In this document: in pieces, positions 18,144 to 38,364 of the stretch | Position numbering within the stretch: the stretch's first letter is position 1 | How the letters are laid out: every line of letters begins with the position of its first letter | Origin: an uncultured Actinomycetes bacterium | GTDB taxonomy: Bacteria > Actinomycetota > Thermoleophilia > Gaiellales > JAICJC01 | Direction: 5' to 3' | DNA length: 64,000 nt | NCBI GenBank assembly: GCA_963832955.1 | Contig: CAWHWC010000001.1 | Span: 156,810-220,809 of the forward strand | Notes under the pieces: model-generated | What the model was told of the DNA's origin: nothing | Seen by the model: the letters and a program-made list of their open reading frames with translations, nothing else | Databases searched by the model: none | Position numbers and translations under genes: made by a program

Positions 18144-18943
18144 CCCGTGCGACGGCGGCGGTGGACAGTCAGCCGATGACCTCTAGCGTGATGGGCACGG
18201 AGCTGTACGCGGGCGACATCGACGGTGCTGCTGAGACCGTCATCCAGCGCGCCCTCTCGGCAGAGGGCGGCTACGCCTCGCTGACCGGCGTGCACGGCCT
18301 GACGCTCGCCCAGCGCGACCCCGGCCTGCGCCACGCGCTCGACGGCGCATGGATGAATTTCCCCGACGGCGCGCCGGTCGCGTGGCGCGAGCGCCGAAAC
18401 GGCGCCGCCAAGGCCAAGCGAATCGCCGGTCCCGATCTGATGCCGCTGGTGATGGACCGCGGGCGGGCACACGGCCTGCGCCACTACCTGTTCGGCGCGA
18501 CGCCCAACGTGCTCGAGCGGCTCGAGCGGAATCTGCTCGAGCGGTTCCCCGGCGCGTCGATCGTCGGCACGAGCTCGCCTCCGTTTCGGGCGATGAACGC
18601 CCCCGAGGAGCGGGAGGCCGTGGCTGCGATCCTCGGCGCCGACCCGCACATCGTCTGGGTCGGCCTGGGGACTCCGAAGCAGGACCTGTGGATGCACCGG
18701 CTCTCACCCGACCTCGGCAGCGTCCTTGCGATGGGCGTCGGCGCCGCGTTCGACTTCATCTCCGGCAACCGTCCCCGGGCCCCCATGTGGATGCAGGAGT
18801 CAGGTCTCGAATGGCTGCACCGGATGGTGCACGACCCGCTCAAGCTCGCACCGCGCTACGCCGCGGCGAACACGCTTTTCATCGCCAGCACCATCGCCGA
18901 GGTCACCCGCGACACGGTCGGGGCTGCCCGTCCGTCCCGGTGA
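18140..18943 (+). CDS. WecB/TagA/CpsF family (GT26) glycosyltransferase
   Basis: Intact frame from ATG 18140, which overlaps the kinase stop (ATGA). Contains 'GPDLMPLVMD...HYLFGATPNVLERLERNL...IVWVGLGTPKQDLWM...MGVGAAFDFISG...APMWMQESGLEWLHR'. Confidence 0.8.
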   Translation: MTRATAAVDSQPMTSSVMGTELYAGDIDGAAETVIQRALSAEGGYASLTGVHGLTLAQRDPGLRHALDGAWMNFPDGAPVAWRERRNGAAKAKRIAGPDLMPLVMDRGRAHGLRHYLFGATPNVLERLERNLLERFPGASIVGTSSPPFRAMNAPEEREAVAAILGADPHIVWVGLGTPKQDLWMHRLSPDLGSVLAMGVGAAFDFISGNRPRAPMWMQESGLEWLHRMVHDPLKLAPRYAAANTLFIASTIAEVTRDTVGAARPSR

Positions 18944-18947
18944 TGCT

Positions 18948-20182
18948 GTGCGGGTGCTGGTCGTCCACAACCGGTACCGGAGCGCGCAGCCGAGCGGCGA
19001 GAACGCGGTAGTCGAGGAGGAGACGAGCCTCCTCCGCGGCGCGGGCGTCACGGTCGAGGTGCTCTCGGTCGAGAGCGACGACATCGCCGTCGTGGCCGGC
19101 CGCGAAGCGCCTGACGCTGCCCGGCCGGGTGGTCTGGTCGCGGGACGGAGCACGGACGGTGAGGCGCGCGATCGCGGGGTACCGGCCCGACGTCGTCCAC
19201 TTCCACAACACGTTCCCGCTGCTCAGCCCGGCCGCGCTGCGCGCCGCGCACGGGGCAGACGTGCGGGTGGTGCAGACGCTGCACAACTTCCGGCCCCTGT
19301 GCCCGGCCGCCACGTTCCTGCCGCGACGGAAGGGTGTGCGAGGACTGCCTGGGCCGCGTCCCCATCCCGGCGGTCGTCCACGGGTGCTACCGCGTCATCG
19401 AGGCTGGCGACGCTCCCGATCGCCGCCAAGGACGCCCTCCACAGCGCGATCGGCACCTGGTCGAAGCGCGGTCGACACCTACATCACGCCCTCCGAGTTC
19501 GCCCGCAGCCGCTACCTGAAGGCGGGCTGGCCGGCCGACCAGATCGTCGTCAAGTACAACACGGCGCCCGACCCCGGAACCCCCCGGCCGGACTACGAGG
19601 GGGGCTTCGTGTGCCTCTCCCGGCTCGCGCCCGAGAAGGGCATCGACGTGCTCCTCGACGCGTGGGGCCGGACGTTCCCCGACGGCGGCGCACGCCTCAG
19701 GATCGTCGGGTCGGGCGAGCTGGAGACCGAGCTGCGGGCTCGCGCGGCGACGCTGACCGGTGTGGAGCTCGCCGGCCAGCTCCCGCGCGACGCGGGCCTC
19801 GAGATCCTCGCCGGAGCGCGCGCGCTCGTCGTCCCGTCGCGCTGGTACGAGGTGTTCCCGCGGATCGTCGCCGAGGCCTACGCGCTGGGCGTGCCCGTCA
19901 TCGCCTCGCGGCTCGGCAGCCTCGAGGAGATCGTCGCCGACGGCAGGACGGGCCTGCACTTCGACCCCCGACGACGCCGCCGATCTCGGCCGGGCGCTGC
20001 GGGCGCTCGCCGACGACCGCGGCCTGGCGGAACGCCTGGGCGAGGGGGCCCGGCGGGAGTACGAACAGCACCTGAGCCCTGGGGCGACCACCGATCGGCT
20101 GCTCGAGATCTACTCGGGCGCACCGCCGCGCGTCACCGCCGCCGGGAGCGCGCCGCTGACGGCCGGAGGCGCGGCGCTGTGA
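18948..20182 (+). pseudogene. GT4 family glycosyltransferase, frame-disrupted
   Basis: 'VRVLVVHNRYRSAQPSGEN' is in the 18726 frame. 'DVVHFHNTFPLLSP...' and 'GRLAPEKGIDVLLDAW...VVPSRWYEVFPRIVAEAYALGVPVIASRLGSLEEIVADGRTGLHFDP' are in the 19129 frame. The tail is in 19760..20182. Confidence 0.75.
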
Positions 20183-20200
20183 ACGTCGTCGCCCAGAGAC

Positions 20201-21555
20201 GTGCCGCGGCGCCGCCGAGTCGCCACCCGTACCGAGCCCGCGGAGCTCAGCCGGTTCGTGTTCTGGTCGTTCGCCGCGCTGATCATCTTCTGCGCCGTCT
20301 ACTTCCACTCCAAGACGGATCCCGGCACGCGGTTCGCGATCCGAAACGGACAGCTCGCGAACTACGGCCCGAGCTGGTGGGACCAGCAGAAGTTCGGGTC
20401 GTTCACACCCGGCGACCTGGCCGTGTTCGCGTTCGCGTATGCCGGCTTCATCGAACGGCTGCGGACGGGGCGGCTGCACGTCGCCGGCCGGACGGCGTGG
20501 CTGATCGGGTTGGGGACGACCGCGGTGCTGGCGGGCATCGCGGCCGGCGTCTACCACGAGACCGCGAGCCCGTTCGGCGACTGGCGCGACCTGGCCGTCG
20601 GCCTGCTGTTCGCGTTCGCCCTCTGGTCGACGGTGCTCCAGACCGACCGGGACTGCCTCCAGTTCGCGCAGATCTTCGTCGCGATCATGGCCGCCTACGG
20701 CGTCGACCAGCTTGATGCAATACGCCTCGGGCGGCGGCGAGATCGCCTTCTACGGCCGGACGACGACGGGCGACCACGCGACCCTGGAGTTCATGGTGGC
20801 CGCGGTCGGCATCTCGCTGGCGATGCTGCGAACGAACAGGACGCGGTGGCTCTGGTGGGCGGGGATCTCGTCGGCACGAGCGTCGTCGCTCTGGCGTTCC
20901 GCCGCTACGCGTGGGTCGAGCTCGCCATCGTGTTCGCGGCGTTCGTCCTGCTGCTTTCGGGCGCCAGCCGGCGCCGGTACCTCGTCGCGATCGGCGGCGT
21001 GGCCGCGGCCTGTCTCATCACTGTGGCCCTGACCTGGTCGTCGCTCGACTGGTCCGGGCGGCTGAACAGCCTCGACCCGACCCTCACGCGCGACAGAACA
21101 TCTACGCGACGACGAATCAGGGCCACATCAACGACATCCTCGACGGCTGGGACGAGGTCCGCACACACCCGGTGTTCGGGCTCGGGGTGGGCGTCCTCTA
21201 CCTCGGCTCAGCGCACCGCTCAGTGGAAGGGCGACGCCGGCATGGTGCACAACGCGCCGATCGAGGTGTGGATCAAGTTCGGCCTCCTCGGCCTCGTCGT
21301 CTTCGTGGCGATCTACGTGATCCTCTTCCGCGACATCTGGAGGCGACGCAACCGCGGCCGGATACTCCGACCTGCTCGCGTTCGGCGGCGGCGCGTTCCT
21401 GCTCGGGAACTTCGTCGTCATCGCCAGCGTGTACTCGTGGCCGTTCGGCGCGTGGGAGAAGGCGCATCCTCATCTTCGCGCTGATCGCCATGGCGTATCC
21501 GCCCGGTTGGCGGTACTCGCCACAACGCCCGGCAGCCCCGGCGACCGAGAGCTGA
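20201..21555 (+). pseudogene. O-antigen ligase/polymerase-like (Wzy-type) integral membrane protein, frame-disrupted
   Basis: Many TM segments are spread over 20201..21484, 20712..21032 and 20911..21555, for example 'FVFWSFAALIIFCAVYF', 'TAWLIGLGTTAVLAGIAAGVY', 'IEVWIKFGLLGLVVFVAIYVILF'. Position in the cluster also supports the call. Confidence 0.55.
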
Positions 21556-21556
21556 C

Positions 21557-22479
21557 ATGGAGAGAGATGTGCCGGAGCCCGACTCGCTCGACCTGACCGT
21601 GGTGACCCCGTCGTACGGGTACGCCCACTTCCTGCGCGACGCGATCGTGAGCGTCGCCGAGCAGCCGGGCATCACCGTCGAGCACATCGTGCAGGACGGC
21701 GGCTCGACCGACGGCACGGTGGAGCTGCTCCAGGAGCTCGACGACCGGGTGGACTGGGTATCCGAGCCGGACGACGGCCAGTCCGACGCGCTCAACCGCG
21801 GCATCGCCCGGGCCCGCGGCCGCTGGATCGCATGGCTGAACGCGGACGAGTTCTACCTCCCCGGCGGCCTGGCGGCCCTCGTCCGCGCAGGGCGACGCGA
21901 CGGGCGCCGACGTCGTCTACGGCGACACCCTCTTCTCGGACGGCGACGGACGGCTGACCCGCCTCTGCCGCAGCACCGGTTCTCGCCGTTCGTGCTGCGC
22001 TCGTACGGCTGCTTCATCAGCACCGTCTCGTGCATCGTACGCCGCGATCGTCGCTCGGGCGACGACCCCATCGACGTCGTCGATGCGGCGGATGATGGAC
22101 TGGGACCTGTATCTGCGGCTGCTCGCCGAGGCGGGCGTCGTTCCGGCACGTGACGACACCGGTCGGCGTCTTCCGCGCGCACGACACGCGCGTGACCGCC
22201 ACCGAGCGGCGCGGGTTCTTCGAGCGGCTCAACCGCGACGACGGGTTCGGGCGTGAGTACGACATGGTGCGCGAGCGCTACGGCGCGATGCGCATGCGCC
22301 GGGTCGGGCACGTCGCCCACGGCGCCCTCAAGCTGACCGACGGCGGCTACCGGCGCCAGCTCCGGGCCCGAAACCTGCACGGCGCCGACCTGCGCTGGTG
22401 GGCGTCGCCCGGGGGTGCGGCGGCGTGGGAGCGCGTTCGGGCGGAGTGCTACCCGTCGTCGAATGGGCGACCGCGATGA
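21557..22479 (+). pseudogene. GT2 family glycosyltransferase, frame-disrupted
   Basis: 'LTVVTPSYGYAHFLRDAIVSVAEQPGITVEHIVQDGGSTDGT...DDGQSDALNRGIARARGRWIAWLNADEFY' is in 21557..22153. The C-terminus is in 22150..22479. Confidence 0.75.
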
Positions 22480-23400
22480 GCGTCCGCCCGGTCTTCCTGT
22501 TCTCGCTCCCGCGCAGCGGCTCGACGCTGCTTCAGCGGATGCTCGCCACCCACCCCGAGATCGCGACGACGTCGGAGCCGTGGGTCCTGCTTGCCACAGC
22601 TCTACGCCCTGCGCGAGACCGGAGCGGTCGCGGAGTACGGCCACCGGACGGCCGCCCGGGCCATCGCCGACTTCGGCGACAGCCTGCCCGGGGGCCGCGC
22701 CGATTACCTCGACGAGGTGCGGCGCTCGACGCTCGCGCTCTACGAGCTGGCGGCGGGCGACGCAGGCTGGTTCCTGGACAAGACCCCGCGCTACCACCTG
22801 GTGGTCGACGAGATCATGGCGCTCTTCCCGGACGCGCGCTTCGTCTTCCTGTGGCGAAACCCGCTCGCGGTCGCCGCGTCGATGATCGACTCGTTCGGCC
22901 GCGGACACTGGAACCTCGACCGCTACGAGGTCGACCTGCACGGACGGGCTCAGCACGCTGGTCGCCGCCTCGCGGTCGCGACGATCCCCGGGCCTCCGCG
23001 CTCCGCTTCGAGGACGTCGTCGCCGACACCGATCGCCGCGACGGCTCCGTCTTCGAGTTGCTCGGGCTCGACCCGCCGAGGCGACGGCCCCGGAGTTCGC
23101 CGTCACGAGCCTCGCGGCCGGATGGGCGACCGGACCGGGACGGCGAGCTACACCGCGGTCAGCGCCGAGCCGCTCGAGCGGTGGCGAGCCACGATGGCCA
23201 ATCGCGCTTCGCAAACGCTGGTGCGCGGCGTACCTGCGCTCGCGTCGGTCCGGAGCGGCTCACCGCGATGGGGTACGACCCCGACGAGCTCGTGAGCGAG
23301 GTCGCGACCCTCCCGGTCCGGCCGACGCGCGTGGCCTCCGACGTCGCCCGCAGGGCCTACGGCTACGGCCGGGCGCGCGCCTCGGCGCGGCTCATGTACC
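22476..23400 (+). pseudogene. sulfotransferase (ST1, PRSGST type), frame-disrupted; 3' end approximate
   Basis: ATG 22476 overlaps the GT2 stop (ATGA). 5'-PSB '[17 protein letters not shown]'. 3'-PB '[19 protein letters not shown]' is in 22591..23295. Confidence 0.65.
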
Positions 23401-23429
23401 CGCGGTCGCGCGCCGCCAGCAGGCCGACC

Positions 23430-24302
23430 GCGCGGCGCCGAGGCGGCGGCCGACCGAGGCGCGGGCGACGACCAGACGCTGATCTTCCTGCACATCGGCA
23501 AGACCGCGCGGCACGACCTGCGCCAGATCCTGAAGCGCCAGTTCCCCTCCTCGCAGACCATGACGGTGTCGGTGCGCGCGGCGGCCGCCCGCGGAGGAGA
23601 CGCTGGCCGACTTCGCGCTGCTCCCCGAGGCCGATCGACTCCGGCCGCGGCTGATCCTGGGCCACACCGTGTTCGGCCTGCACGAGCACGTGCCGCGGCC
23701 CTGCCGCTACGTGACGATGCTGCGCGACCCGGTGCGGCTTGCCGTCTCGCAGTACCGCTACGTGCTGCGGACGCCGGGCCACCGCCACCACGAGCGCGCC
23801 CGGGGATGTCGCTCGAGGAGTACGTCGCGAGCGGCTTCGCCCACGAGATGGACAACAGCCAGACGCGGGCGCTCGCGGGCGACATCGGCACACCGTACGG
23901 CGGCAACCCGCCGGAGCTGCTCGAGACCGCGAAGCGGAACGTCGCGGGCACTTCGCCGGGTCGGCGCTGACCGAGCGATTCGACGAGTCGGTGGTGCTGC
24001 TCGGCCAGACCTTCGGCTGGGGTGACGTCCGCTATGTCAGCGCGAACGTCGCCCACGCCGGGGCTCCGCCGACCGAGGCCGAGGTCGACCTCGTGCGGGG
24101 GGCGAACCGCCTCGACCTCGAGCTCTACGAGCACGCGTGCAACCTCCTCGACGGGCGGATCGCCGCCGAGCCGGGGTTTGCCGATGCGCTCGAGCAGTTC
24201 CAGCGCGCGAACGCCCGCTACCGGCGCTGGGGAAGACTGACGTACACCCTCCCGTCGCGGATCAAGCGCCGGATCGCACCCGAAGTTGCCCGCGGCGACT
24301 AG
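23430..24302 (+). pseudogene. sulfotransferase (ST2, HS6ST-like family), frame-disrupted; 5' end approximate
   Basis: Contains '[19 protein letters not shown]', 'YVTMLRDPVRLAVSQYRYV', 'MDNSQTRALAGD' and 'LTERFDESVVLLGQTFGW...ANRLDLELYEHA'. It is a paralog of 26609..27457 and 30082..30951. Confidence 0.65.
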
Positions 24303-24314
24303 GGCCGGAACCCC

Positions 24315-24512
24315 TCAGCCGTCCCGCTCCCACCGCCTGGGCGTCTCCCGGTCTGTCCACCACTGGCGGTTCTCGTCGGCCAGCCTGCGCAGGTAGCGGC
24401 GATGGGCAAGCTCCGCGTCCGGGTGCGAGGCCCCGAGGCGCTCCTTCTTGTCCTCCCAGTCCTCGCGGAGCTGCCGCTTGGACTGCGTGCCGTCGGGCGA
24501 CCGGCGGCTCAT
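24315..24512 (-). CDS. small charged hypothetical protein (65 aa), translationally coupled to the GH26 gene
   Basis: The ATG overlaps the GH26 stop (ATGA). Third codon positions are nearly all G/C. The sequence 'MSRRSPDGTQSKRQLREDWEDKKERLG...' has no recognisable domain. Confidence 0.5.
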   Translation of the reverse strand: MSRRSPDGTQSKRQLREDWEDKKERLGASHPDAELAHRRYLRRLADENRQWWTDRETPRRWERDG

Positions 24513-25414
24513 CGCATGTAGTACCGCCGCAGACCGGCGTCTCGATAGGCGGCGAGCGACTCCGGCGAGGTGTCCGCCCAGACGTCGCCCCGCGAGGTGA
24601 CGGCGTTCGTCCACACGATCAACCGGACGTGCCATGACCGAAACGTCAGTGCCGCGTTCGTGATCCACGTGGCCTTGGCGGTCGCGTCGTTGGGATCCTC
24701 GGCGCTTCCGACCTCGCCGATCACGAGCTTCTTGCCGTGGTTCACCGCGAACCTGTGGGCCGCTCCGAAGAGCTCGGCCGCCGAGTGCCACTCGGCCACG
24801 TTGTAGCCGTCGACCCCCACGGCGTCGTAGCGGCGCGGCTCGTACCGCCGAATGGTCCTCAGGTCCTGCCGGAAGTTGTGCGACGTCGCAGTCCACACGT
24901 AGGTGACGTTCCTGACGCCGTCGTTCTTGAACAGCTTGTGGACGCGGTGGTAGCTCGCCACGTAGTCGGCAGGGCTCCCGTCGCTGCAGTTGTCGAGCGG
25001 CTCGTGGTTCCACGAGAAGAACACGCGCAGCCGGTAGCGCTTGATGCTCCGGGCGATGTGGTGCAGGTAGCTGTTGTACCGGCCGGCGGCGACGTCGCGC
25101 CAGGGGACGCAGTTGCGGCCGAGCTCGGACGAGACGTTCAGGTAGAGCGGCACGCCACGGGCCTTCATCACCGCCGGGATGTCGGCGCGCAGGTTCGTGT
25201 TGTCGAGCGCGTGGTAGAGGCGGAACGCATGGAACTTCCGGCCGATCTCCGACTCGAGCTTGGCCAGCTCTCCGAGGGTGCTCTGTCCGCTGCGGGCACG
25301 GATGTACGTACCCCAATAGGCGCCCTTTCCGGCCTGCGCCGGCGCCGCCGTCGAGACGGCCGCGACCAGCACCGCCAGCACCGCCACGAACAGTCGCGCG
25401 CGACGTCGTCCCAC
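24509..25414 (-). CDS. secreted glycoside hydrolase, GH26-like (mannanase-type fold)
   Basis: Signal peptide 'RRRARLFVAVLAVLVAAVSTAAPAQA'. Contains 'GAYWGTY', 'WRDVAAGRYNSYLHHIARSIK', a candidate acid/base in 'FFSWNHEP' and a candidate nucleophile in 'LVIGEVGS'. GGGAGG RBS before the GTG. Confidence 0.65.
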   Translation of the reverse strand: MGRRRARLFVAVLAVLVAAVSTAAPAQAGKGAYWGTYIRARSGQSTLGELAKLESEIGRKFHAFRLYHALDNTNLRADIPAVMKARGVPLYLNVSSELGRNCVPWRDVAAGRYNSYLHHIARSIKRYRLRVFFSWNHEPLDNCSDGSPADYVASYHRVHKLFKNDGVRNVTYVWTATSHNFRQDLRTIRRYEPRRYDAVGVDGYNVAEWHSAAELFGAAHRFAVNHGKKLVIGEVGSAEDPNDATAKATWITNAALTFRSWHVRLIVWTNAVTSRGDVWADTSPESLAAYRDAGLRRYYMR

Positions 25415-25594
25415 ACCCCCACCTCCCCGGTTGAACGCGGTCGCATGACCATCGACGCTCGCGGTGAGCCGGTGGTGAGAACGCGGTTAGGATCGTGGAA
25501 AGATTCCGCTTCCAGTTCCTTACAACCATTTTCCGGGTTGTTTGTCCCGGGCAGCCTCTTTCAGAAGGGCGACGGAACCGGTAAACTCGACTGG

Positions 25595-26599
25595 ATGGGT
25601 CATCTTGGAGGCCGGCGTCGAGCCATCCTGGCGATATGGCTCGTCGGCTTTGGTCTCGCCGTCACGTCGGCGGCCAGCGCCGCCACGACGGGGGATCCCC
25701 CGGCGGCGGCCCTCACGGCCGGCGACCCGGTGATCGCCGCTGCCGGCGACATCGCCTGCGACCCGGCCGCCAGCGGATTCCATGGCGGCAACGGCACGGC
25801 GAACGGGTGCTCGGCGCTCAAGACCTCGAATCTGCTCGTCGGCGCGCCGCTGGCGGGTGTGCTGCCGCTGGGCGACAACCAGTACGAGTGCGGCGGCCTG
25901 CGGGCGTTCCAGACCTCCTACGCGCTCTCCTGGGGGCGGGTGGACCCGGCGATCGTCCATCCCGTCGCCGGCAACCACGAGTACGACACGAAGTCGCAGG
26001 ATCCGAAGGGCACGGACTGCTCGCCCACCGCGAACGCGGCCGGCTACTTCGCCTACTTCGGCGCGTCCGCCGGCGACCCGTCCAAGGGCTACTACTCCTA
26101 CGACGTCGGGAGCTGGCACCTGATCGCCCTGAACGCCAACTGCAAGTTCGTGCCCTGCAAGGCCGGGTCGGCCCAGGAGCTGTGGCTGAAGAACGACCTC
26201 CTGACCCATCCGAGCGCGTGCACGCTCGCCTACTGGCACCAGCCACGGTTCTCGTCCGGGGGCAACGGCGGCACGAGCTCGGTGGCCGCGTTCTGGAACG
26301 ACCTCTATGCGAGCCATGCGGAGGTGGTGCTGAACGGCCACCTGCACGCGTACGAGCGGTTCGCGCCCCTCAATCCGTCCGGCGCCCTCGACAGCACGAA
26401 CGGCATACGCGAGTTCGTCGTCGGCACGGGCGGGGACAACCACGGCAAGTTCGGGTCGATCCGGTCCGGCAGCCAGGTGCGCAACAACACGACCTTCGGC
26501 GTGCTCGAGCTGACGCTCGGCAGCACGAGCTACTCCTGGTCGTTCGTCCCGGCCGGATCGGGCACGTTCACGGACTCAGGCAACGAGGCCTGTCACTGA
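25595..26599 (+). CDS. secreted metallophosphoesterase (paralog 1, full motif set)
   Basis: ATG 25595. Signal/TM 'AILAIWLVGFGLAVTSAASAA'. Motifs 'AAAGDIAC', 'LGDNQY', 'AGNHEYD', 'WHQPRF', 'LNGHLHAYERF'. Confidence 0.75.
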   Translation: MGHLGGRRRAILAIWLVGFGLAVTSAASAATTGDPPAAALTAGDPVIAAAGDIACDPAASGFHGGNGTANGCSALKTSNLLVGAPLAGVLPLGDNQYECGGLRAFQTSYALSWGRVDPAIVHPVAGNHEYDTKSQDPKGTDCSPTANAAGYFAYFGASAGDPSKGYYSYDVGSWHLIALNANCKFVPCKAGSAQELWLKNDLLTHPSACTLAYWHQPRFSSGGNGGTSSVAAFWNDLYASHAEVVLNGHLHAYERFAPLNPSGALDSTNGIREFVVGTGGDNHGKFGSIRSGSQVRNNTTFGVLELTLGSTSYSWSFVPAGSGTFTDSGNEACH

Positions 26600-26606
26600 A
26601 GGCGCG

Positions 26607-26627
26607 CGTCAGCGCGCGGCGCTGACG
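26607..26627. terminator. GC-rich hairpin between convergent genes (CGTCAGCGC-GCG-GCGCTGACG)
   Basis: 9-bp perfect stem with a 3-nt loop. It starts 8 nt after the stop of 25595..26599 and overlaps the last codons of 26609..27457. There is no U-tract. Confidence 0.35.
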
Positions 26628-27457
26628 GCCGCCTGGCGGATCCGGTAGGTGGCCCGTCCCCAGGGCCGGTAGATCGCATTTCCGCGGCGAAAGCGCTCCA
26701 GCCGTCGTGAGAAGCCGGGATCGCCCCCCACGCGCTCGTCGAAGCGCTCCACCATGCGCTGGTAGAGCTCGCAGTCCAGGTGGTTTCGCTCCTCGATCAT
26801 GCGCCGGTCGGCGACGCTGACGTCGAGCCGCTGCCCCGACGGCGCCGTGTTCGTCCGCACGTAGTAGAGGTTGTGCCACCCGAACTCGTCCTCGAGCAGG
26901 AGCAGCGTCTCGTCGAACCGCTCGGTGAGCCCGGCGACGACGACATGGGCGTCGATGTTCGCGAGCGCGGTCTCGAGCACGGCGTCGGTGCACTCGCCGA
27001 ACGGCGTCGAGACGTCGCCGGCGAGCGCGCGGGCCTGGCCGTTGTCCACCTCGAGCGCGATGCCGCTCTGGACGTACCGCTCGAGCGTCAGCTCGCCCGA
27101 CGCCGCGGCCTCGTGCAGGCGATGGCGCTCGGTGCGAAGCACGTGCCGGTACTGCGAGATCGTGCGCGCGACCGGGTCTCGGAGCACCGTGAAGTACGCG
27201 GACGGCCGCGGCACCGATGCGTGGATGCCGAACACCATGTGGCTCACGAGCAGCCGCGGCCGGGCTCGCTCGGCCTCCGGCATCGCCGCGAACATCTTGA
27301 GCGGCTCGTCGTTCAAAAAGCCTCGCGGCCGGTGGGCCGGCGGGCGCACCCGCATGACGAGGCGCGGGGGCACGTTGCGGTACAGGATCTGCCGGAGCGT
27401 CCATCCGGCCGTCTTCCCGATGTGGAGGAAGATCGCGGTCGGGTCGTCAGGCCCCAC
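26609..27457 (-). CDS. sulfotransferase (ST3, HS6ST-like family)
   Basis: Intact 282 aa with '[18 protein letters not shown]', 'YFTVLRDPVARTISQYRHV', 'VDNGQARALAGD', 'VVAGLTERFDETLLLLEDEFGW'. Confidence 0.75.
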   Translation of the reverse strand: MGPDDPTAIFLHIGKTAGWTLRQILYRNVPPRLVMRVRPPAHRPRGFLNDEPLKMFAAMPEAERARPRLLVSHMVFGIHASVPRPSAYFTVLRDPVARTISQYRHVLRTERHRLHEAAASGELTLERYVQSGIALEVDNGQARALAGDVSTPFGECTDAVLETALANIDAHVVVAGLTERFDETLLLLEDEFGWHNLYYVRTNTAPSGQRLDVSVADRRMIEERNHLDCELYQRMVERFDERVGGDPGFSRRLERFRRGNAIYRPWGRATYRIRQAAVSAAR

Positions 27458-27535: not shown

Positions 27536-28915
27536 TCATCCGCGCACGAGCTCCCGCAGCGGCTCGAGCGAGAACCGGGCGTGTGTCCAGATGCCGACGC
27601 GCACCCGTGCAAACGTCAGCTGCAGCATGTTTTGCATCGTCTGGGCGGCGCACGTCGCCGCGGCGACGCCGGTGATCCCGTATCGCGGGGCGAGCAGGAT
27701 CTCGGCCGTCACGCTCACGATGCCCGTCGCGACGGTGAGCACCATCATCGTGCGGTGATGGCCCGTCATCATGAGGGTCGCGCCGCTCGAGCCCGTGCAC
27801 ACGGCGACGAGCCGGGCGCAGCTCAGGATGGCGAGCACCGTCGCCCCCTCCCGGAAGAACGGCGTGTAGACGACCTCCATCACGAAGCCCCCGGCGACGA
27901 CGAACACGATCAGCACCAGCGCGGCCGGGATCCCTGCGAGGGTCGAGATGCTGCGGAGCGAGCTTTCGAGCTGCTCCTTCTCGCCGCGGGCATACAGCTC
28001 GGCGATGATCGGCGGCACGACCTGGGACACGATGATGAAGGGCGTCGCCACGAAGAAGACGAGGCGCGACGCCGCGCCGTAGAGCGCCACGTCGGTTGCC
28101 GGGCGGAAGTGCCCCACCACCCACAGGTCGACGCCGGTGCCGACGACGAAGCTCGCGACGCTGGTGACCAGAAGCGGGACGGAGATCGACGCGATCTCGC
28201 GGGCCCGGACGTCCCCGTCGCCGTGGAGCCGCGAGACCTGCCCCCGAAGCGAGATCAGCGCCACGGCGAGGGCGATCGCGGTGGCGGCGACGCTGATCGC
28301 AACCGCCTCGCGGAGCGACGGCCGCGCGCCCGCGATCCAGAGCGCGCCGAAGGCCGCGGCCAGGAGCCCGTCGACGGCGAGCCCGCTGTAGACCGTCGCG
28401 GGCCAGAAGCGCTGAAACCCGCGGAAGGTCTCGGCGGTGAGCAGCAGGAGCGCCTTCACGACGACCCACGCGGCTGTCAGACCGATGACCGCCGCGATGG
28501 CCTCCGAGTGGTAGATGTGGATCGCGACGAAATGGCCGAGCCCGAGCATCAGGACGGCCGCGAGCAGCAGGGAGGACGCGAGCCCCATCGTGTACACCAC
28601 GCGCACCGTGTGCCGGGCCCGGCCGGCGTCGCCGACGCCGCGCGACGCGGACACGAGGCGCACGACGGTGCGGTCGAGCCCCATCTGCGCCACGGTCGAC
28701 CCGATGGTGACCATGCTGAATACGAGGAAGTACTGGCCGAGCAGCGAGGGGCCGAGCGTGTTCGCGAGGATGTGGTTCAGGATCAGCGTGAGGACGGTGC
28801 CGACCGCCATCCCGACGAACACCGTCGCCGATCCGCGCACCAGCCGGCGGCGGACCGCCGCGGTCGCGGCGGACGAGGCCTCCGTCCGGGCAGCGTCAGC
28901 CGATCCGACGCTCAC
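27536..28915 (-). CDS. oligosaccharide flippase (Wzx / MOP superfamily polysaccharide biosynthesis protein)
   Basis: Intact 459 aa with about 12-14 predicted TM helices. Composition is typical of Wzx, and the gene sits inside the glycan cluster. Confidence 0.7.
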   Translation of the reverse strand: MSVGSADAARTEASSAATAAVRRRLVRGSATVFVGMAVGTVLTLILNHILANTLGPSLLGQYFLVFSMVTIGSTVAQMGLDRTVVRLVSASRGVGDAGRARHTVRVVYTMGLASSLLLAAVLMLGLGHFVAIHIYHSEAIAAVIGLTAAWVVVKALLLLTAETFRGFQRFWPATVYSGLAVDGLLAAAFGALWIAGARPSLREAVAISVAATAIALAVALISLRGQVSRLHGDGDVRAREIASISVPLLVTSVASFVVGTGVDLWVVGHFRPATDVALYGAASRLVFFVATPFIIVSQVVPPIIAELYARGEKEQLESSLRSISTLAGIPAALVLIVFVVAGGFVMEVVYTPFFREGATVLAILSCARLVAVCTGSSGATLMMTGHHRTMMVLTVATGIVSVTAEILLAPRYGITGVAAATCAAQTMQNMLQLTFARVRVGIWTHARFSLEPLRELVRG

Positions 28916-29040: not shown

Positions 29041-30066
29041 ATGCAAACACCTTCGGACCGCCTCCCGACCATCGTCTTCAGCTCCGTCGTGCGCTCCACC
29101 GAGAAGAGCGAGAGCCACGGCGGCGTGTACCTCCTCGACCTTGAGACCGAGCAGCTCACGCAGATGATCGACTGGGACGACCAGACGATCGACTTCACCC
29201 AGCGCGGAGGCGACCGCGGCCTCAGAGGCATCGCGTTTCACGAGGACCGCATGTTCCTCGCGGCCGCGGACGAGATCTTCGTCTACGACCCCAGCTTCAG
29301 GCTCACGGGATCGATCAAGAATCCGTACCTGCGCCACTGCCACGAGATCAACACCGGCGGCGGCAAGCTGTTTCTGGGGTCGGTCGGCTACGACACGATC
29401 CTCGAGTACGACATCGAGGCGGAGCGGTTCACGGCGGGGTATTGCATCCGCTATCACGGCATCCGGCGCAAGCTGCGCCGCAAGCGCCGCGACGGGTTCC
29501 AGATCCGGCCCCGGCCGCGCCTGACGGTCTTCGACCCGTACGACGAGGGCGGGCCGGAGCCGGCGGACACCGCCCACCCCAGCTTCCCGTGGTGGAACGC
29601 CGGCACGCTCTACGTGGCGGGCGGCGGGCTCGGCCATATCTACGCGATCCGCGACCGGCGGATGCGGCGCTATGCCCGGATCCCCTACGAATCGCACAAC
29701 GCCCACCCGTTCCGCGGCGGCCTCCTCATGAACCACTCGCCCACGCACCGGATGATGTTCACCGACATGCGCGGCCGGATCCAGAAGACGTGGGCCGTGC
29801 CGGTCTACGACGAGTCCGAGCTCGAGTTCTCGAACGTGCCGCGTGACCACGCCTACCAGGGGTTCTGCCGCGGCATCGCCGAGACCGGCGAGAACATCAT
29901 CGTGCAGGGCTCGTCCCCAGCGACGATCAACCTCTTCCGGTGGGACCCGCCCGGGCTGATCAAGTCCATCAACGTGACGATGGACGTGCGGAACTCGGTG
30001 CACGGACTCGAGATCTGGCCGTTCCCCGAGGTGCCGACGACCCCTCCGCCGCCGCCTGCCGGATAG
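29041..30066 (+). CDS. hypothetical protein (341 aa), possibly beta-propeller-like; faint recalled resemblance to the DUF4915/TIGR03032 family
   Basis: Intact ORF. I prefer ATG 29041 over the track start 28960 because the upstream codons are GC3-poor. Contains 'GLRGIAFHEDRMFLAAADEIFVYD', 'LRHCHEINTGGGKLFLGSVGYDTILEYD' and 'LLMNHSPTH', with a Pro-rich tail 'PTTPPPPPAG'. No signal peptide. Confidence 0.55.
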   Translation: MQTPSDRLPTIVFSSVVRSTEKSESHGGVYLLDLETEQLTQMIDWDDQTIDFTQRGGDRGLRGIAFHEDRMFLAAADEIFVYDPSFRLTGSIKNPYLRHCHEINTGGGKLFLGSVGYDTILEYDIEAERFTAGYCIRYHGIRRKLRRKRRDGFQIRPRPRLTVFDPYDEGGPEPADTAHPSFPWWNAGTLYVAGGGLGHIYAIRDRRMRRYARIPYESHNAHPFRGGLLMNHSPTHRMMFTDMRGRIQKTWAVPVYDESELEFSNVPRDHAYQGFCRGIAETGENIIVQGSSPATINLFRWDPPGLIKSINVTMDVRNSVHGLEIWPFPEVPTTPPPPPAG

Positions 30067-30081: not shown

Positions 30082-30951
30082 TCAGGCGCCGATCCTGCCG
30101 CGGGCGCGCTTGGGGAGCGTGTAGGTGAGCGTCCCCCAGACCCGGTAGCGGGCGTTGGCGCGCTGAAACCGCTCGAGCTCCCGGTCGAGAGCCGGGCCGG
30201 CGACGGCGTCGAGGCGCTCGCCGGCGTACCGGTAGAGCTCGAGGTCGAGCCAGTTCTGCTCCTCGATCATGCGGATCGTGTCGGCGGGAACGTCTGACCG
30301 GGCGATCTTGCGCCGCGAGACGTTGGCGTTCACGTACGTCAGGCGGCCCCAGCCGAGCTCGCGCCGGATCGCGAGCAGCGACTCGTCGAACCGCTCCGCG
30401 ATCCCGACGACCGCGAACTGGGCGTCGACGATCGCCTTGGCGCGGTCGAGCATGTCCTGCGTGCACGCCCCGTACGGCGTCGCCGTGTCGGCGATGACCG
30501 CCCGCGTCTGGCTGTTGTCCAGCTCGAGGGCGAGGCCGCTTCGCAGATACGCCGCGACGTCCATGTCGTCGCGAACGACCACGTCGTGGAACCGGTGCTC
30601 GGGCCAGTAGCGGGCGCTCTTGTAGCCCGAGAGGGCCCGCGCGACCGGGTGCCGCAGGAGCGTGATGTACGTCGTCTCGCGCGGGATGTACTCGTGGATC
30701 CCGTACATCATGTGCGCCATGATCAGGCGGGGCCGCGCCCGCTCCGCCTCGGGCAGCTCGGCGAACCGCTCGACCGGGATGGAGCTCAGGAAGCCGTTCG
30801 GCGCCGACCGCGGGTTTCGCAGCTGGAGCGTTCGCGACCCCGGGACGTTGCGGCGCAGGATCCGGCGCAGCGTCGCCCCGGCGGTCTTTCCGAGGTGGAG
30901 GAAGACGACGGTGGGCGGACCGGCGTCAGCCGATCTCGATGTGGACGTCAT
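30082..30951 (-). CDS. sulfotransferase (ST4, HS6ST-like family)
   Basis: Intact 289 aa with 'VVFLHLGKTAGATLRRIL', 'YITLLRHPVARALSGY', 'LDNSQTRAVIAD', 'AVVGIAERFDESLLAIRRELGW'. The start overlaps the LamG gene end by 26 nt. Confidence 0.75.
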   Translation of the reverse strand: MTSTSRSADAGPPTVVFLHLGKTAGATLRRILRRNVPGSRTLQLRNPRSAPNGFLSSIPVERFAELPEAERARPRLIMAHMMYGIHEYIPRETTYITLLRHPVARALSGYKSARYWPEHRFHDVVVRDDMDVAAYLRSGLALELDNSQTRAVIADTATPYGACTQDMLDRAKAIVDAQFAVVGIAERFDESLLAIRRELGWGRLTYVNANVSRRKIARSDVPADTIRMIEEQNWLDLELYRYAGERLDAVAGPALDRELERFQRANARYRVWGTLTYTLPKRARGRIGA

Positions 30952-31692: not shown

Positions 31693-32637
31693 ATGGGCGC
31701 CGCCGTGTCGAGCGCCCACCGCCCACCGATCCTGGTCACAGGATCGCACCGCTCCGGCACCACCTGGGTGGGCCGCACGATCGCCGCCTCGCCCAACATC
31801 GGCTACCTCGACGAGCCGTTCAGCCTGCGCCATCGGCCGGGCGTCCTGCGGACGCGGTTTCCCTTCTGGTTCCCGTACCTGACGACCGCCAACGCAGGCG
31901 CTACCACCGCCGACCTGCGCCGGACGCTCGCGTTTCGCTACAGCTACGCGGCGGAGCTCGGCGCCATCGGGTCGACCCGCGACGCCGGGCGGATGGTGAG
32001 GGACGCAGGGCGGTTCGCCGTGTGGCGCGCGCGCCGCGCCCGGCCGCTGCTCAAGGATCCCATCGCGATCCTCGCGGTGCCGTGGCTGGCCGCCGAGTTC
32101 GACACCCAGCCGGTCGTCCTCATCCGCCACCCGGCCGCGTTCGCATCCAGCCTGAAGCGCATGGGCTGGACCCACGACTTCTCGCACTTCCTGCGCCAGC
32201 CCGGCCTCGTCGACGATCTCGTGCCCGACCTGCGCTCCGACATCGAGGCGTTCGCGGCCGAACCGCGCGACGTCATCGACCAAGCCGGGCTCCTGTGGGT
32301 CATCGTCCACACGGTCATCGAGCGATACCGGCGCGAGCACCCGGAGTGGGCGTTCGTGCGCCACGAGGACCTCTCGAACGACCCCTTCGGCGGGTTTCGC
32401 GACATGTTCTCCGGGCTCGGCCTCGAGTACACACCCGACGTCGACCGCTACATCGCCGAGAGCACGGGCGCAGCGAACCCGGCCGAAGCCCCGACCGGCG
32501 TCATCCACGAGCTGCGGCGCGACAGCTCGGCAAACGTCCACACGTGGCGATCGCGACTCGACGCCGAGGAGGTGCGCCGGGTCCGCGACCGCACGGGCGC
32601 CGTCGCCCGAGCCTTCTATTCCGACGACGAATGGTGA
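31693..32637 (+). CDS. sulfotransferase (ST5, P-loop HRSGTT type)
   Basis: Contains 'ILVTGSHRSGTTWVGRTI', 3'-PB 'VVLIRHPAAFASSLKR' and 'FVRHEDLSNDPFGGFRDMFSGLGLEY'. The start is ambiguous: 31639 (track), 31693 or GTG 31705. TACAAT at 31689-31694. Confidence 0.7.
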   Translation: MGAAVSSAHRPPILVTGSHRSGTTWVGRTIAASPNIGYLDEPFSLRHRPGVLRTRFPFWFPYLTTANAGATTADLRRTLAFRYSYAAELGAIGSTRDAGRMVRDAGRFAVWRARRARPLLKDPIAILAVPWLAAEFDTQPVVLIRHPAAFASSLKRMGWTHDFSHFLRQPGLVDDLVPDLRSDIEAFAAEPRDVIDQAGLLWVIVHTVIERYRREHPEWAFVRHEDLSNDPFGGFRDMFSGLGLEYTPDVDRYIAESTGAANPAEAPTGVIHELRRDSSANVHTWRSRLDAEEVRRVRDRTGAVARAFYSDDEW

Positions 32638-32644
32638 CGCGCCG

Positions 32645-33793
32645 TCAGATCGAGAATCGCGCGAGGTGCCGGAACGTGGCCGTCCCCATCTGCGTGAAGT
32701 CGCCGCCGGCGTAGATCTTCGTCGAGTTCACGAAGACCGACCACGTGCCCTTGGCGCTGTTCGGCTTGGGCGTCCAGCCCGTGTCGACGGCGCCCGTCGC
32801 CGGGTCTACCGCGGACAGGCGAGCAGCACCCACTCCTGCGATGTGGCGGAAGTGCCCACCGAAGATCACCTCGCCGTCCGCGGAGTCGTAATCGATGGCC
32901 TGGACGCCGCCGTCGGTTGGGACATCCCAGACGATGGAGCCGGCGTTCGTGAAGCGGTAGGCGTGCCCGTCGGGGTCACCTGTGCCTCCGCCGGCCACGA
33001 AGACGTCCGTTCCGAACGCGATGACCTGCCAGACCTGGAACGACGGATGGGTCGCCCACGGTCCGACGGATCCGTCGGGGTTGATCGCCGCGATGTACTG
33101 CTGCGCGGTACCGTTCACCGTGGCGAACACACCGCCGATCACGACTTGACCGTTTGCAAGCGGAGCCACGCTCCGGATCTCTGCGTTCACCGTGATCTTC
33201 AGCGGAAGGACGCTGGGCACGGGCTGCGAAAGGTCAAGCGCGGCGAACCGCTGGCGCTTCACGCCGTTGATCTTCGCGAACTGACCACCCATGTACAGCG
33301 TCGATCCCGACACCGCCATCGCACGCACACGCTTCGTGGCCTCGGCCTTCCACGACTCGAGGCTCTCGCCGAGGTACGCGGCGAAATGGCTGCGGGCCTG
33401 CCCGTCGATCGTGGTGAAGTCGCCGCCCACGAAGAGCTGCGAGCCGTCGGTGACGAGCGAGTACACGATCCCGTTCGGGTCGGGCGCGAAGCTCGTGTCG
33501 AGCGCGCCGGTCGCGGCGTCGATCGCCATCAGGTGGGCGCGCGGAACCGTCGAGCCGTCCGGGGCGACCGCGTGCGTGAAATCGCCTCCGACGAAGACGG
33601 TGCTGCCGACCTGGACGATCGACCAGACGCGGCCGTCGGTGCCCCACGTGCCGGGATCGGGAGCGTTCGGCGGCGTCGCCCAGGCCACGGCGGCTGACAG
33701 CGCCCAGACGGCCGAGGCGAGCACGAGCCCGCGTGTGATCACTCGCCGGAACCTGTCACCCAACTCGACGCGCCTGTTGCCGCCCGCACCCAT
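32645..33793 (-). CDS. secreted beta-propeller repeat protein (DUF5122 / delta-60-repeat-like)
   Basis: I prefer ATG 33793 because AGGAGG lies 6 nt upstream. Signal 'GLVLASAVWALSAAVAWA'. The blade motif recurs as 'VFVGGDFTHA', 'LFVGGDFTTIDG', 'LYMGGQFAKING', 'VIGGVFATVNG', 'IFGGHFRHIAG', 'IYAGGDFTQMG', and 'ATGALDTSFAPDPNG' is present. Confidence 0.7.
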   Translation of the reverse strand: MGAGGNRRVELGDRFRRVITRGLVLASAVWALSAAVAWATPPNAPDPGTWGTDGRVWSIVQVGSTVFVGGDFTHAVAPDGSTVPRAHLMAIDAATGALDTSFAPDPNGIVYSLVTDGSQLFVGGDFTTIDGQARSHFAAYLGESLESWKAEATKRVRAMAVSGSTLYMGGQFAKINGVKRQRFAALDLSQPVPSVLPLKITVNAEIRSVAPLANGQVVIGGVFATVNGTAQQYIAAINPDGSVGPWATHPSFQVWQVIAFGTDVFVAGGGTGDPDGHAYRFTNAGSIVWDVPTDGGVQAIDYDSADGEVIFGGHFRHIAGVGAARLSAVDPATGAVDTGWTPKPNSAKGTWSVFVNSTKIYAGGDFTQMGTATFRHLARFSI

Positions 33794-33882
33794 AAAAGCC
33801 TCCTGGACAGAATTCCCAAGATTCTCCATTCAATTCGGGAACACGTCAAGTCGGACGGCCCTGTTCATGAGGCGGTTCAGGG

Positions 33883-33955: not shown

Positions 33956-34657
33956 ATGACGGTTGGAGGGGGAGACTCGACCGGTGGAGGCGGGTCGGCC
34001 AGGATCTATCTGGTCCGGCACGGGCGGACGGTGATGAACGCCGAAGTGCGGTTCCGCGGGAGGCTCGAGGTCCCGCTCGACGCCGTTGGACGGGCCGAGG
34101 CGCTGGCGGTCGCACGCCGGCTCTCGGAGGCCGGGCTGACCGCCGCATACACGAGCCCGCTGGCGCGTGCGCGTGAGGTCGCCATGGCGATCGCCGCAGC
34201 GTCCCAGCTCGAGCGGGTCGACGACCACGACGGCCTCACGAACCTCGATTACGGGGTGTGGGAGGGGCTGACGAAGGAGGAGTGCGCGGCTCACGACCCC
34301 GAGGCGTTCCGCCTGTACGCGGAGGAGCCCGAGAACGCGGCCTGCCCCGACGGCGAGGCGCTGTCGGTCGCCGCCGCCCGCGTCGTCGACGCGCTACGTG
34401 AGATCGGGACGCGACACCCGGGCGAGTCAATCGCCGCGGTGACGCACGGCGCCATGGTGCGGCTCGCGGTCCTCCGGATCGCCGGCCCGACGATCGGCGA
34501 CTGGCAGTTCAAGCTGCCGACCGGCTCGGCGACCGTGTTCGAGGTCTCCGACGGCGAGGTGCGCCTTGTTTCGCCGCTCGACCGGTTCCGCCCGGATCCG
34601 CACAAGGCGGCGGCCGCAACGGTCGAAGACGATTCGCCGAAGGCGGTAGCGTCATGA
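33956..34657 (+). CDS. histidine phosphatase family protein (phosphoglycerate-mutase-like)
   Basis: 'RIYLVRHGRTVMN' (RHG motif), 'EVPLDAVGRAEA' and 'AVTHGAMVR'. The stop overlaps the next ATG (ATGA). Confidence 0.8.
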   Translation: MTVGGGDSTGGGGSARIYLVRHGRTVMNAEVRFRGRLEVPLDAVGRAEALAVARRLSEAGLTAAYTSPLARAREVAMAIAAASQLERVDDHDGLTNLDYGVWEGLTKEECAAHDPEAFRLYAEEPENAACPDGEALSVAAARVVDALREIGTRHPGESIAAVTHGAMVRLAVLRIAGPTIGDWQFKLPTGSATVFEVSDGEVRLVSPLDRFRPDPHKAAAATVEDDSPKAVAS

Positions 34658-35661
34658 GCAGCCGCCCCGTCGTCGTGACGGGCGCCGGCGGCTTCATCGG
34701 CGGCCACCTCGTACGAGACCTGGTTCGCCAGGGAGCTCAGGTGCGCGCGGTCGACCAGAAGCCGCTCGAGGAGTGGTACCAGGTCGCGCCGGACGCCGAG
34801 AGCCTCGTCCTCGACCTCTCGCTCCGCGAGAGCTGCGACGTGGCCGCGGCCGGGGCGAGCCGCATCTACAACCTCGCTGCGGACATGGGCGGCATGGGCT
34901 TCATCGAGAACAACAAGGCGCTCTGCATGCTCTCGGTGCTCATCAACACGCACCTGCTGATGGCGGCGTCCAAAGCCGGCGTCGACCGGTTCTTCTTCTC
35001 GTCGTCGGCCTGCGTCTACGCCGCCGAGCAGCAGACGTCCCCGGACGTGACCGCGCTCAAGGAGGCCGACGCCTATCCGGCGATGCCCGAGGACGGGTAC
35101 GGCTGGGAGAAGCTCTTCAGCGAGCGGATGTGCCGGCACTTCCGCGAGGACTTCGGGCTCGAGACGCGGGTCGCGCGGTACCACAACGTCTACGGGCCGT
35201 ACGGGACGTACGACGGCGGTCGCGAGAAGGCACCGGCGGCCATCTGCCGCAAGGTCATCGCCGCGAAGCTCTCCGGATCGAACGCGATCGAGATCTGGGG
35301 CGACGGTGAGCAGACGCGGAGCTTCATGTACGTCGACGACTGCGTCTATGGCACCCAGCTCCTGACCGACAGCGACGTCGTCGATCCGATCAACGTCGGC
35401 AGCTCCGAGCTGGTGACGATCAACCAGCTGGTGTCCATCGTCGAGGACATCGCCGGCATCGAGCTGGAGCGCAACTACAAGCTCGACGCTCCGCAGGGCG
35501 TGCGGGGCCGAAACAGCGACAACACCATGATCCTCGAGCAGCTCGGGTGGGAGCCTTCCACGACCCTGCGCGACGGCATGGAGCAGACGTACCGCTGGAT
35601 CCACGACGAGATGGTCGCGAGCGGCCGGTACGGCTCGACGGCCGTCCCCGTCGCACGCTGA
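34654..35661 (+). CDS. NAD-dependent epimerase, GDP-mannose 3,5-epimerase-like
   Basis: Rossmann 'VVVTGAGGFIGGHL'. Long collinear matches to plant GME as I recall it: 'AADMGGMGFI', 'RFFFSSSACVY', 'YGWEKL', 'RYHNVYGPYGTYDGGREKAPAAICRK', 'IWGDGEQTRSF', 'PINVGSSELV', 'PQGVRGRNSDN'. Confidence 0.75.
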   Translation: MSSRPVVVTGAGGFIGGHLVRDLVRQGAQVRAVDQKPLEEWYQVAPDAESLVLDLSLRESCDVAAAGASRIYNLAADMGGMGFIENNKALCMLSVLINTHLLMAASKAGVDRFFFSSSACVYAAEQQTSPDVTALKEADAYPAMPEDGYGWEKLFSERMCRHFREDFGLETRVARYHNVYGPYGTYDGGREKAPAAICRKVIAAKLSGSNAIEIWGDGEQTRSFMYVDDCVYGTQLLTDSDVVDPINVGSSELVTINQLVSIVEDIAGIELERNYKLDAPQGVRGRNSDNTMILEQLGWEPSTTLRDGMEQTYRWIHDEMVASGRYGSTAVPVAR

Positions 35662-38211: not shown

Positions 38212-38364
38212 ATCCCCGGCCCGGGATGACTCCCCGTTAGGTTAGGGGACTGTGAGGAAACTGTCAAAACGAACGGTGCGAGGAATCCTCTCATCCAACC
38301 AAGCCCCTGACACGCCTGGCCATTGGAGGAATGAGGCTTCCCGCATGGTTCGGCGGGTCGGGAG

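Follow-up and report, generated by a model that had tools for sequence, protein, structure and literature searches.

A 64-kb stretch of high-GC DNA (GC 68–77%) from an uncultured Actinomycetes bacterium, referred to here as the window, encodes three related sulfotransferase-like proteins, A, B and C, within a locus for polysaccharide synthesis. We consider it probable that the three proteins work in the cytoplasm as soluble O-sulfotransferases of the bacterial Gal-3-O-sulfotransferase/Sulfotransfer_2 branch, and that they sulfate the repeat unit of a polysaccharide made by the Wzx/Wzy pathway; 3'-phosphoadenosine-5'-phosphosulfate (PAPS) is the most likely donor. Judged by profile searches and a predicted structure, they are homologous to the Golgi carbohydrate sulfotransferases of animals and have a fold in common with the heparan sulfate 2-O- and 6-O-sulfotransferases (HS2ST and HS6ST). 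The three genes are as follows.

26609–27457, minus strand: sulfotransferase paralog A, 282 aa, an intact open reading frame (ORF) located 78 nt downstream of the same-strand Wzx gene
30082–30951, minus strand: sulfotransferase paralog B, 289 aa, an intact ORF whose start overlaps the upstream LamG stop by 26 nt
~23467–24302, plus strand: sulfotransferase paralog C, broken in the window; the true gene encodes 277 aa

The GC content at third codon positions (GC3) is 0.91–0.93 in A and B, which is coding-type and typical of real genes in this genome. Copy C was recovered by tblastn of A and B against 22–25 kb as four frame pieces (~23476–23568, 23594–23800, 23806–23943 and 23946–24302), and their summed E of ~1e-50 lies far beyond chance. 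Over ~280 aa, A and B are 48% identical, A and C 50%, and B and C about 45–47%. The earlier note on this DNA had described three ORFs with five common motifs, and this was borne out: (I/V)FLH(I/L)GKTAG, LR(D/H)PV...S, (V/L/M)DN(G/S)Q(A/T)RA, (G/A)(L/I)(T/A)ERFDE(T/S) and N.LD.ELY are found in A, B and C. The sole exception is the GKTAR of C in the window, which is a local artefact of an indel pair, because intact copies of C read GKTAGST.

Family, fold and paralogy of A, B and C

The best curated family for the three proteins was PF06990 (Gal-3-O_sulfotr), with E 5.3e-11 and 42.5 bits for A and E 1.2e-13 and 51.2 bits for B. For C, the reconstructed protein gave E 1.8e-8 and 34.2 bits, and the intact ortholog (L001C) from a Gaiellales metagenome-assembled genome (MAG), L001, gave E 1e-12 and 48.1 bits; the Pfam gathering cut-off is 27 bits. 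PF06990 comprises the animal cerebroside/Gal3ST enzymes and has also been used for finding red- and brown-algal polysaccharide sulfotransferases. Although it is the best-scoring family, the scores against it are modest (34–51 bits), and the matches cover model positions ~63–333 of 402; the bacterial proteins lack counterparts of the anchor region at the N-terminus of the model and of its C-terminal part. PF03567 (Sulfotransfer_2), the Pfam family holding HS6ST and HS2ST, was marginal and at threshold (22.2 bits for A and 22.1 bits, against a cut-off of 22 bits). No NCBIfam model matched A or B.

When B was used as a single phmmer query, the top PDB sequence match was zebrafish HS6ST3 (5T03, E 0.015); the aligned parts are the 5'-phosphosulfate-binding (PSB) loop, RDPVxRxLS and the helix carrying NxLDxxLY. 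When a profile built from 34 homologs was searched against all PDB sequences, HS6ST3 again came first (E 2.4e-15), followed by HS2ST (E 3.4e-10). The profile alignment with HS2ST is one contiguous block at positions 5–247, and that with HS6ST consists of three local segments comprising the PAPS-binding parts and the C-terminal helices, with the acceptor-binding region (~residues 119–166) unaligned. The AlphaFold2 model of A (pLDDT 89.2, pTM 0.86) contains five strands with flanking helices. Foldseek analysis of this model against the PDB gave E <1e-5 only for HS2ST (4NDZ, 3F5F) and HS6ST (5T03, 5T05), with E 1e-7 to 7e-6 and TM scores of 0.55–0.61 over these entries; the values were E 1.4e-7 and TM 0.60 for HS2ST, and E 3e-6 and TM 0.57–0.60 for HS6ST. 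Cytosolic SULTs (E >3e-3) and nucleotide kinases trailed far behind.

All 34 homologs share the PSB loop, F10-L-H-I-G14-K15-T16-A-G18, without variation; A, B and intact C have it too, and it aligns to FLHIQKTGG of HS6ST and VPKTAST of HS2ST. Residues K15, H73, H79, R93, P95 and S101 are invariant in the 34 homologs and all three paralogs. R93, P95 and S101 form the 3'-phosphate-binding (PB) element, which aligns to MLRDPVSRYLS of HS6ST and VIRDPIERLVS of HS2ST; the Arg within PxxRxxS is present in A and B and absent from C and many homologs, and the upstream Arg is invariant. In the profile alignment, the HS2ST residue opposite H73 (sHMvfGiH) is the second His of YHGH. We take that residue to be His142, the catalytic base, reportedly described by Bethea et al. 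in 2008, and from this pairing we infer that H73 is the catalytic base of A, B and C. A PSB Lys, a PB Ser and a His base are the defining features of polysaccharide sulfotransferases (PMC11625862), and the invariant K15, S101 and H73 fit this definition, which supports placement in that fold group. The catalytic domain begins at residue 6–14 in A, B and C, and there is no hydrophobic N-terminal segment; the lack of a membrane anchor indicates soluble, cytoplasmic proteins.

The resemblance to HS6ST, which the earlier note had proposed, therefore reflects real homology, since HS6ST3 is the best PDB match and HS2ST and HS6ST are the sole strong structural matches. The best hits did not fall in an unrelated P-loop family, and resemblance to carbohydrate sulfotransferases was found. 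The HS6ST motifs named in the earlier note stood in part: PDB 5t03 contains VFLHIQKTGGTTF and FYGLTEFQ, two of the three, and it also carries YITMLRDPVSRYLS and NMLDMQLY. The equivalence proposed for NLANNRQVRMLAD is tentative, as this stretch appeared in no alignment and a 70-aa consensus peptide over DNSQTRA...TERFDE, searched against the PDB, gave only a spurious match to a designed propeller. A, B and C are superfamily relatives of HS6ST and not HS6ST orthologs, because PF06990 outranks PF03567 and HS2ST is equal to HS6ST as a structural match.

A, B and C each have their own ortholog, 75–78% identical, in Gaiellales/Actinomycetota MAGs. L001 encodes orthologs of A and C, the related MAG L002 those of A and B, and a further related MAG, L004, those of all three, with gene order conserved; the B orthologs in L002 and L004 are 76–77% identical. 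On these sequence comparisons, the three paralogs diverged long ago and have been kept separately within a diversified family; they do not stem from a recent local triplication, because the copies are only 45–50% identical and each belongs to its own orthogroup. The earlier description of genes "triplicated within one locus" is misleading for the same reason, and a recent tandem triplication was rejected. Residues that are fixed within but differ between the orthogroups cluster at 19–52, 71–74 (flanking the putative base) and 98–114, and the PAPS-binding positions are common to all. Distinct acceptor specificities, or regiospecificity, of A, B and C are therefore plausible.

The family is large. 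An exhaustive profile search yielded 22,276 clusters (50% identity) at E <=1e-3 and 3,217 at E <=1e-30, and homologs already bear automatic names such as "Galactose-3-O-sulfotransferase" or "sulfotransferase family 2 domain-containing protein" (JGI, NCBI). Other architectures in the family include tandem fusions of two to four domains, a TPR fusion and one fusion to a nonribosomal peptide synthetase (NRPS) (P0121, P0123, P0125, P0227). In the NRPS fusion, P0227, the family domain lies at the C-terminus in the order C-A-T-C-A-T-TE-ST.

The surrounding locus and its probable product

Besides A, B and C, the locus and its borders contain the following genes. Several are corrupted in the window, and for these the coordinates and matches in L005 and L006 are given, two of the contigs that encode exactly protein A.

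16700–18122, plus strand: Wzz-like chain-length determinant fused to a BY-type tyrosine autokinase; corrupted (NCBIfam tyrosine autokinase, E 1e-16 to 1e-17; PF02706 Wzz in L006)
18137–18931, plus strand: WecG/TagA/CpsF-family glycosyltransferase of family GT26 (PF03808, E 6.9e-52; NCBIfam EpsA, wecG_tagA_cpsF)
18942–20180, plus strand: GT4 glycosyltransferase; corrupted, in three frames (409 aa in L005, 17260–18489, PF13439/PF00534)
20198–21473, plus strand: Wzy/O-antigen-ligase-like polymerase; corrupted (L005, 15851–17263, PF04932 Wzy_C)
21557–22470, plus strand: GT2 glycosyltransferase; corrupted (L006, 14974–15891, PF00535)
22476–23470, plus strand: Sulfotransfer_3-type sulfotransferase; corrupted (fragment PF13469, E 2.7e-11; L005, 13986–14975, 329 aa, PF13469/PF00685)
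24509–25414, minus strand: secreted GH26-like glycoside hydrolase, 301 aa (PDB phmmer, GH26 domain of C. thermocellum endoglucanase H, CelH, 2bv9 and others, E 5e-9)
25445–26599 (plus strand), 36487–38241 (minus strand) and 39664–40626 (plus strand): secreted metallophosphoesterase/purple-acid-phosphatase-like proteins, in or beside the locus
27536–28915, minus strand: Wzx-type flippase (Polysacc_synt/MOP), 459 aa (PF01943, E 1.4e-13; NCBIfam WZX_like, MATE)
29041–30066, plus strand: conserved beta-propeller protein, 341 aa, no signal peptide (L005, 7392–8417)
30926–31675, minus strand: secreted LamG/ConA-like protein, its stop overlapping the B start by 26 nt
31693–32637, plus strand: second Sulfotransfer_3/Sulfotransfer_1-type sulfotransferase, 314 aa as called in L005 (4822–5766; PF13469, E 1.1e-9; PF00685, E 1.4e-5)
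32645–33829, minus strand: secreted DUF5122 (delta-60 repeat) beta-propeller, interleaved with the sulfotransferase genes
34654–35661, plus strand: NAD-dependent sugar-nucleotide epimerase/dehydratase (PF01370, E 3.9e-40; L005, 1798–2805)

The plus-strand run at 16.7–24.3 kb (Wzz/BY-kinase, GT26, GT4, Wzy, GT2, Sulfotransfer_3 and C), corrupted throughout in the window, is intact in L005/L006, and in L005 the stop of the Sulfotransfer_3 gene overlaps the start of C by 4 nt. The locus thus holds five sulfotransferases, A, B and C of PF06990 and two of the PF13469/PF00685 type, together with Wzx, Wzy, a Wzz/BY-kinase co-polymerase, GT26, GT4 and GT2, the set that defines a Wzx/Wzy-type locus. 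The same genes occur in the same order in L001, L002, L004 and L005–L007. A histidine phosphatase gene is also located downstream, with the DUF5122 propeller and the epimerase, and ordinary chromosomal genes (dnaX, recR, aspartate kinase and sdh/frd) flank the locus. More distant Actinomycetota loci combine PF06990 with up to five further sulfotransferases around Wzx/Wzy.

In the mechanism that we propose, the five sulfotransferases would decorate the undecaprenyl-diphosphate-linked repeat unit at the cytoplasmic face, where PAPS is available, and A, B and C may each sulfate a different hydroxyl or sugar of this unit. Wzx would then flip the sulfated unit, Wzy would polymerise it and Wzz/BY-kinase would set the chain length. 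In this way a Gaiellales-like soil actinobacterium would make a heteropolysaccharide that carries several sulfates and is either extracellular or wall-associated. The placing of sulfation before flipping was adopted from the model proposed for synechan (PMC8205485). The data show the fold, the motifs and the gene linkage; from these we infer which donor and acceptor are used, when sulfation occurs and how regiospecific it is.

Several points weigh against this proposal. No APS kinase or ATP sulfurylase was found in the 64-kb window, by tblastn with an E. coli CysC query and by Pfam analysis of 34 ORFs, and no priming phosphoglycosyl transferase was seen in the locus. The argument for distinct acceptor specificity comes solely from the group-specific residues. 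The family is not exclusively carbohydrate-directed, as the NRPS-fused P0227 shows. No characterised enzyme of this bacterial PF06990-type branch was found in the literature searched, and nothing relevant was found there on Gaiellales exopolysaccharides (EPS). Furthermore, sulfation of any actinobacterial polysaccharide has only been predicted so far (PMC13390465).

The product may instead be a sulfated glycopolymer bound covalently to the cell wall, a teichoic-like or secondary wall polymer with a GlcNAc-ManNAc linkage unit, and not a released EPS; we regard this as unlikely but worth serious consideration. Relatives of the WecG/TagA protein (GT26) encoded here synthesise the ManNAc-GlcNAc-PP-undecaprenol linkage unit (NCBIfam TarA/WecG matches), and the locus lacks a WbaP-type primer, while the distant loci carry Bac_transf. 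However, a Wzz/BY-kinase co-polymerase combined with Wzy is characteristic of capsule/EPS pathways, the window showed no LCP ligase, and the wps-1 cluster of Actinoplanes, with the same GT26, has been read as an EPS cluster (PMC13390465).

It appears improbable that the acceptor is something other than a polysaccharide (a glycolipid, lipo-oligosaccharide, peptide or small metabolite, for example) and that the linkage to polysaccharide genes is incidental. Mycobacterial Stf and rhizobial NodH/KpsS are examples of sulfotransferases acting on such acceptors. The fusion of a family member to an NRPS termination module agrees with this reading, as does the fact that characterised bacterial carbohydrate sulfotransferases are mostly glycolipid-directed (PMC11625862; PMC8205485). 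However, the genes for all three proteins are scattered among those for Wzx, Wzy, the glycosyltransferases and the BY-kinase, and C, which overlaps the Sulfotransfer_3 gene by 4 nt, lies at the end of an apparent same-strand glycosyltransferase/Wzy run. This arrangement is kept across MAGs at 75% and ~50% identity, and the locus contains no lipid or NRPS/PKS (polyketide synthase) genes. Sulfation of the polysaccharide repeat unit is the reading that we retain.

The 29041–30066 beta-propeller had no match in Pfam (relaxed thresholds included), NCBIfam or PDB sequences. Its 1457 homologs are all labelled hypothetical and measure about 325–341 aa. The AlphaFold model (pLDDT 87.4) is all-beta, and Foldseek returned only generic WD40/NHL/designed-propeller matches. 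Homologs recur in the sulfotransferase-rich Wzx/Wzy loci of distant Actinomycetota (L009, 8001–8975; L011, 8001–8987), and this recurrence suggests that the propeller may be an uncharacterised component of the polysaccharide pathway.

Several further observations were made on neighbouring genes. The end of the BY-kinase (~18050–18122, plus strand) is rich in Tyr and Gly (GYGYGGGYGYGGYG), which is the expected autophosphorylation cluster of Wzc-type kinases. Besides the CelH domain, which is a lichenase, the GH26-like protein matches the GH26 beta-1,3-xylanase 2ddx (PDB phmmer); it had no Pfam match above threshold, and relaxed thresholds gave no class. The 31693–32637 sulfotransferase shows a weak NoeE match (NCBIfam). 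The 26-nt overlap between the LamG gene and B suggests co-translation. One of the three metallophosphoesterase-like proteins has an fn3 domain. In L001 and L002, the orthologs of the 36487–38241 product have a C-terminal half that matches the 39664–40626 product at 62–63% identity, and by sequence the two window products look like paralogs. In the distant Actinomycetota, the L009/L010 (1–16975) and L011 loci contain Bac_transf, WecG, epimerase, GT4, Wzy, Wzx and GT2 genes with six sulfotransferase genes, one of PF06990 and five Sulfotransfer_1/3-like. They also encode a 341-aa protein that matches PF00224, the barrel domain of pyruvate kinase, and two DUF5122 propellers are encoded in L011.

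The heparan sulfate comparison and the state of copy C

That A, B and C are functional counterparts of HS6ST, acting on a heparosan- or glycosaminoglycan-like backbone, is very unlikely. In its favour are the rank of HS6ST3 as the best PDB sequence match and of HS2ST and HS6ST as the best structural matches. HS2ST and HS6ST have the same fold as A, B and C (TM ~0.6) and the same order of elements: the PSB Lys loop, a His base after the third strand, RDPxxRxxS, a GxTE(R/E) strand and the NxLDxxLY helix. However, identity amounts to only 18–22%, the HS6ST alignment leaves out the acceptor region as described above, and the DNSQTRA motif of A, B and C is absent from HS2ST. Membership in the HS6ST subfamily failed both on family ranking, with PF06990 well above PF03567 (Pfam prefers Gal3ST) and HS2ST an equal or better structural match, and on topology. 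The bacterial proteins, at ~280 aa, have neither an N-terminal membrane anchor nor a stem and are not type II membrane proteins.

Nor were glycosaminoglycan backbone genes recognised in the genomic context: no heparosan-type synthase (GT45/GT64/KfiA/KfiC), UDP-glucose dehydrogenase or C5-epimerase was identified in the window by Pfam scans and L005-type annotations. The link to a glycosaminoglycan-modifying family that the earlier note had suggested found no support, and nothing ties A, B and C to heparan sulfate.

The same note had called the third copy frameshifted. In the window, no fewer than 19 indel columns interrupt C, and the net reading frame shifts at three points, near 23573, 23801 and 23944 (+4, -1 and -1 nt in a DNA alignment with the intact L001 ortholog). 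Codon-position GC analysis showed that the window changes frame every 50–190 codons at ~4.6–24.3 kb and is clean at 24.5–47 kb. In this error-rich stretch, proA, proB, argH, argG, argF, argR, hisG, hisC, hisB, hisF and hisIE, as well as the first half of the polysaccharide locus, are fragmented into pieces of 45–190 aa; breakage that extends to housekeeping genes is not biological decay.

A further 15 contigs, drawn from several ENA assemblies, encode exactly protein A; four of these contigs (L005–L008) were compared with the window. L005, L006 and L007 align to 16.6–37.4 kb of the window at 96.7–98.6% identity, and L008 aligns to 17.7–28.8 kb only, at 94.7%. In L005, L006 and L007, C is an intact gene of 277 aa with PF06990 and the GKTAGST motif (L005, 13156–13989). 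When window-specific indels were defined as indel columns common to the window alignments with these three contigs, 75 columns were obtained; 74 lie in 16.6–24 kb, 19 columns lie inside C, and none falls in A or B. Other assemblies are broken elsewhere, at random (B in L007, C in L008). The frameshifts of copy C are an assembly error and not biological.

Pseudogene status was considered first and then dropped: that C is a genuine decaying pseudogene, with the locus losing one paralog, is extremely improbable, because its three net frameshifts stand against the intact copies, the confinement of window-specific indels, the equally fragmented essential genes upstream and the random breakage in other assemblies.

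Related loci and significance

One of the two closest parallels is the synechan xss locus of Synechocystis sp. PCC 6803. This Wzx/Wzy locus encodes two sulfotransferases, and its EPS has been shown chemically to be sulfated (PMC8205485). Both are heteropolysaccharide loci of the type dependent on Wzx, Wzy and a polysaccharide co-polymerase, and in each a number of glycosyltransferases are joined by two or more sulfotransferases from different subfamilies. In the synechan model the lipid-linked repeat unit is sulfated in the cytoplasm (PMC8205485), as we propose here. The xss locus is cyanobacterial and plasmid-borne and includes the XssQ/R/S regulators, whereas the window locus is chromosomal and actinobacterial. 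Alongside five sulfotransferases, three of them of the PF06990 type, it encodes a BY-kinase, a GH26-like enzyme and a beta-propeller, and its product is a prediction from these genes.

The wps-1 cluster of Actinoplanes missouriensis, described in 2026, contains GT2, GT26 (WecG/TagA), GH26, Wzx/Wzy/Wzz and two sulfotransferases (PMC13390465). Its component list is nearly identical to that of the window locus, and sulfation is predicted in both. The wps-1 sulfotransferases are CHST-like and HS-NST/3OST-like (Sulfotransfer_1-type), with no PF06990-type enzyme reported, and a methyltransferase, a kinase-like protein and DUF4262 are found only there. The window locus, in contrast, adds three PF06990-type enzymes, GT4 and the propeller. 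The presence of a GH26 gene within a Wzx/Wzy cluster was called unprecedented for wps-1 (PMC13390465), and the GH26-like gene of the window is a second, distant example.

A, B and C extend known biology within a large family that is already annotated automatically, and nothing is overturned. A broader generalisation can be offered tentatively: this may be a widespread locus type in uncultured soil Actinomycetota (Gaiellales and relatives), producing a densely sulfated, glycosaminoglycan-like polyanion. Three enzymes with the HS2ST/HS6ST fold and at least two of the Sulfotransfer_3 type would each place a different sulfate on one repeat unit, and the cytoplasmic propeller would be an obligatory part of the pathway. 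Among bacteria, sulfated polysaccharides are, to our knowledge, scarcely documented except in cyanobacteria and a handful of marine isolates. That abundant soil actinobacteria conserve a locus with five sulfotransferases suggests strongly anionic exopolymers, with possible consequences for how soils aggregate, bind metals and retain water. As small, soluble, anchor-free relatives of HS2ST/HS6ST, A, B and C could also serve in enzymatic glycan sulfation.

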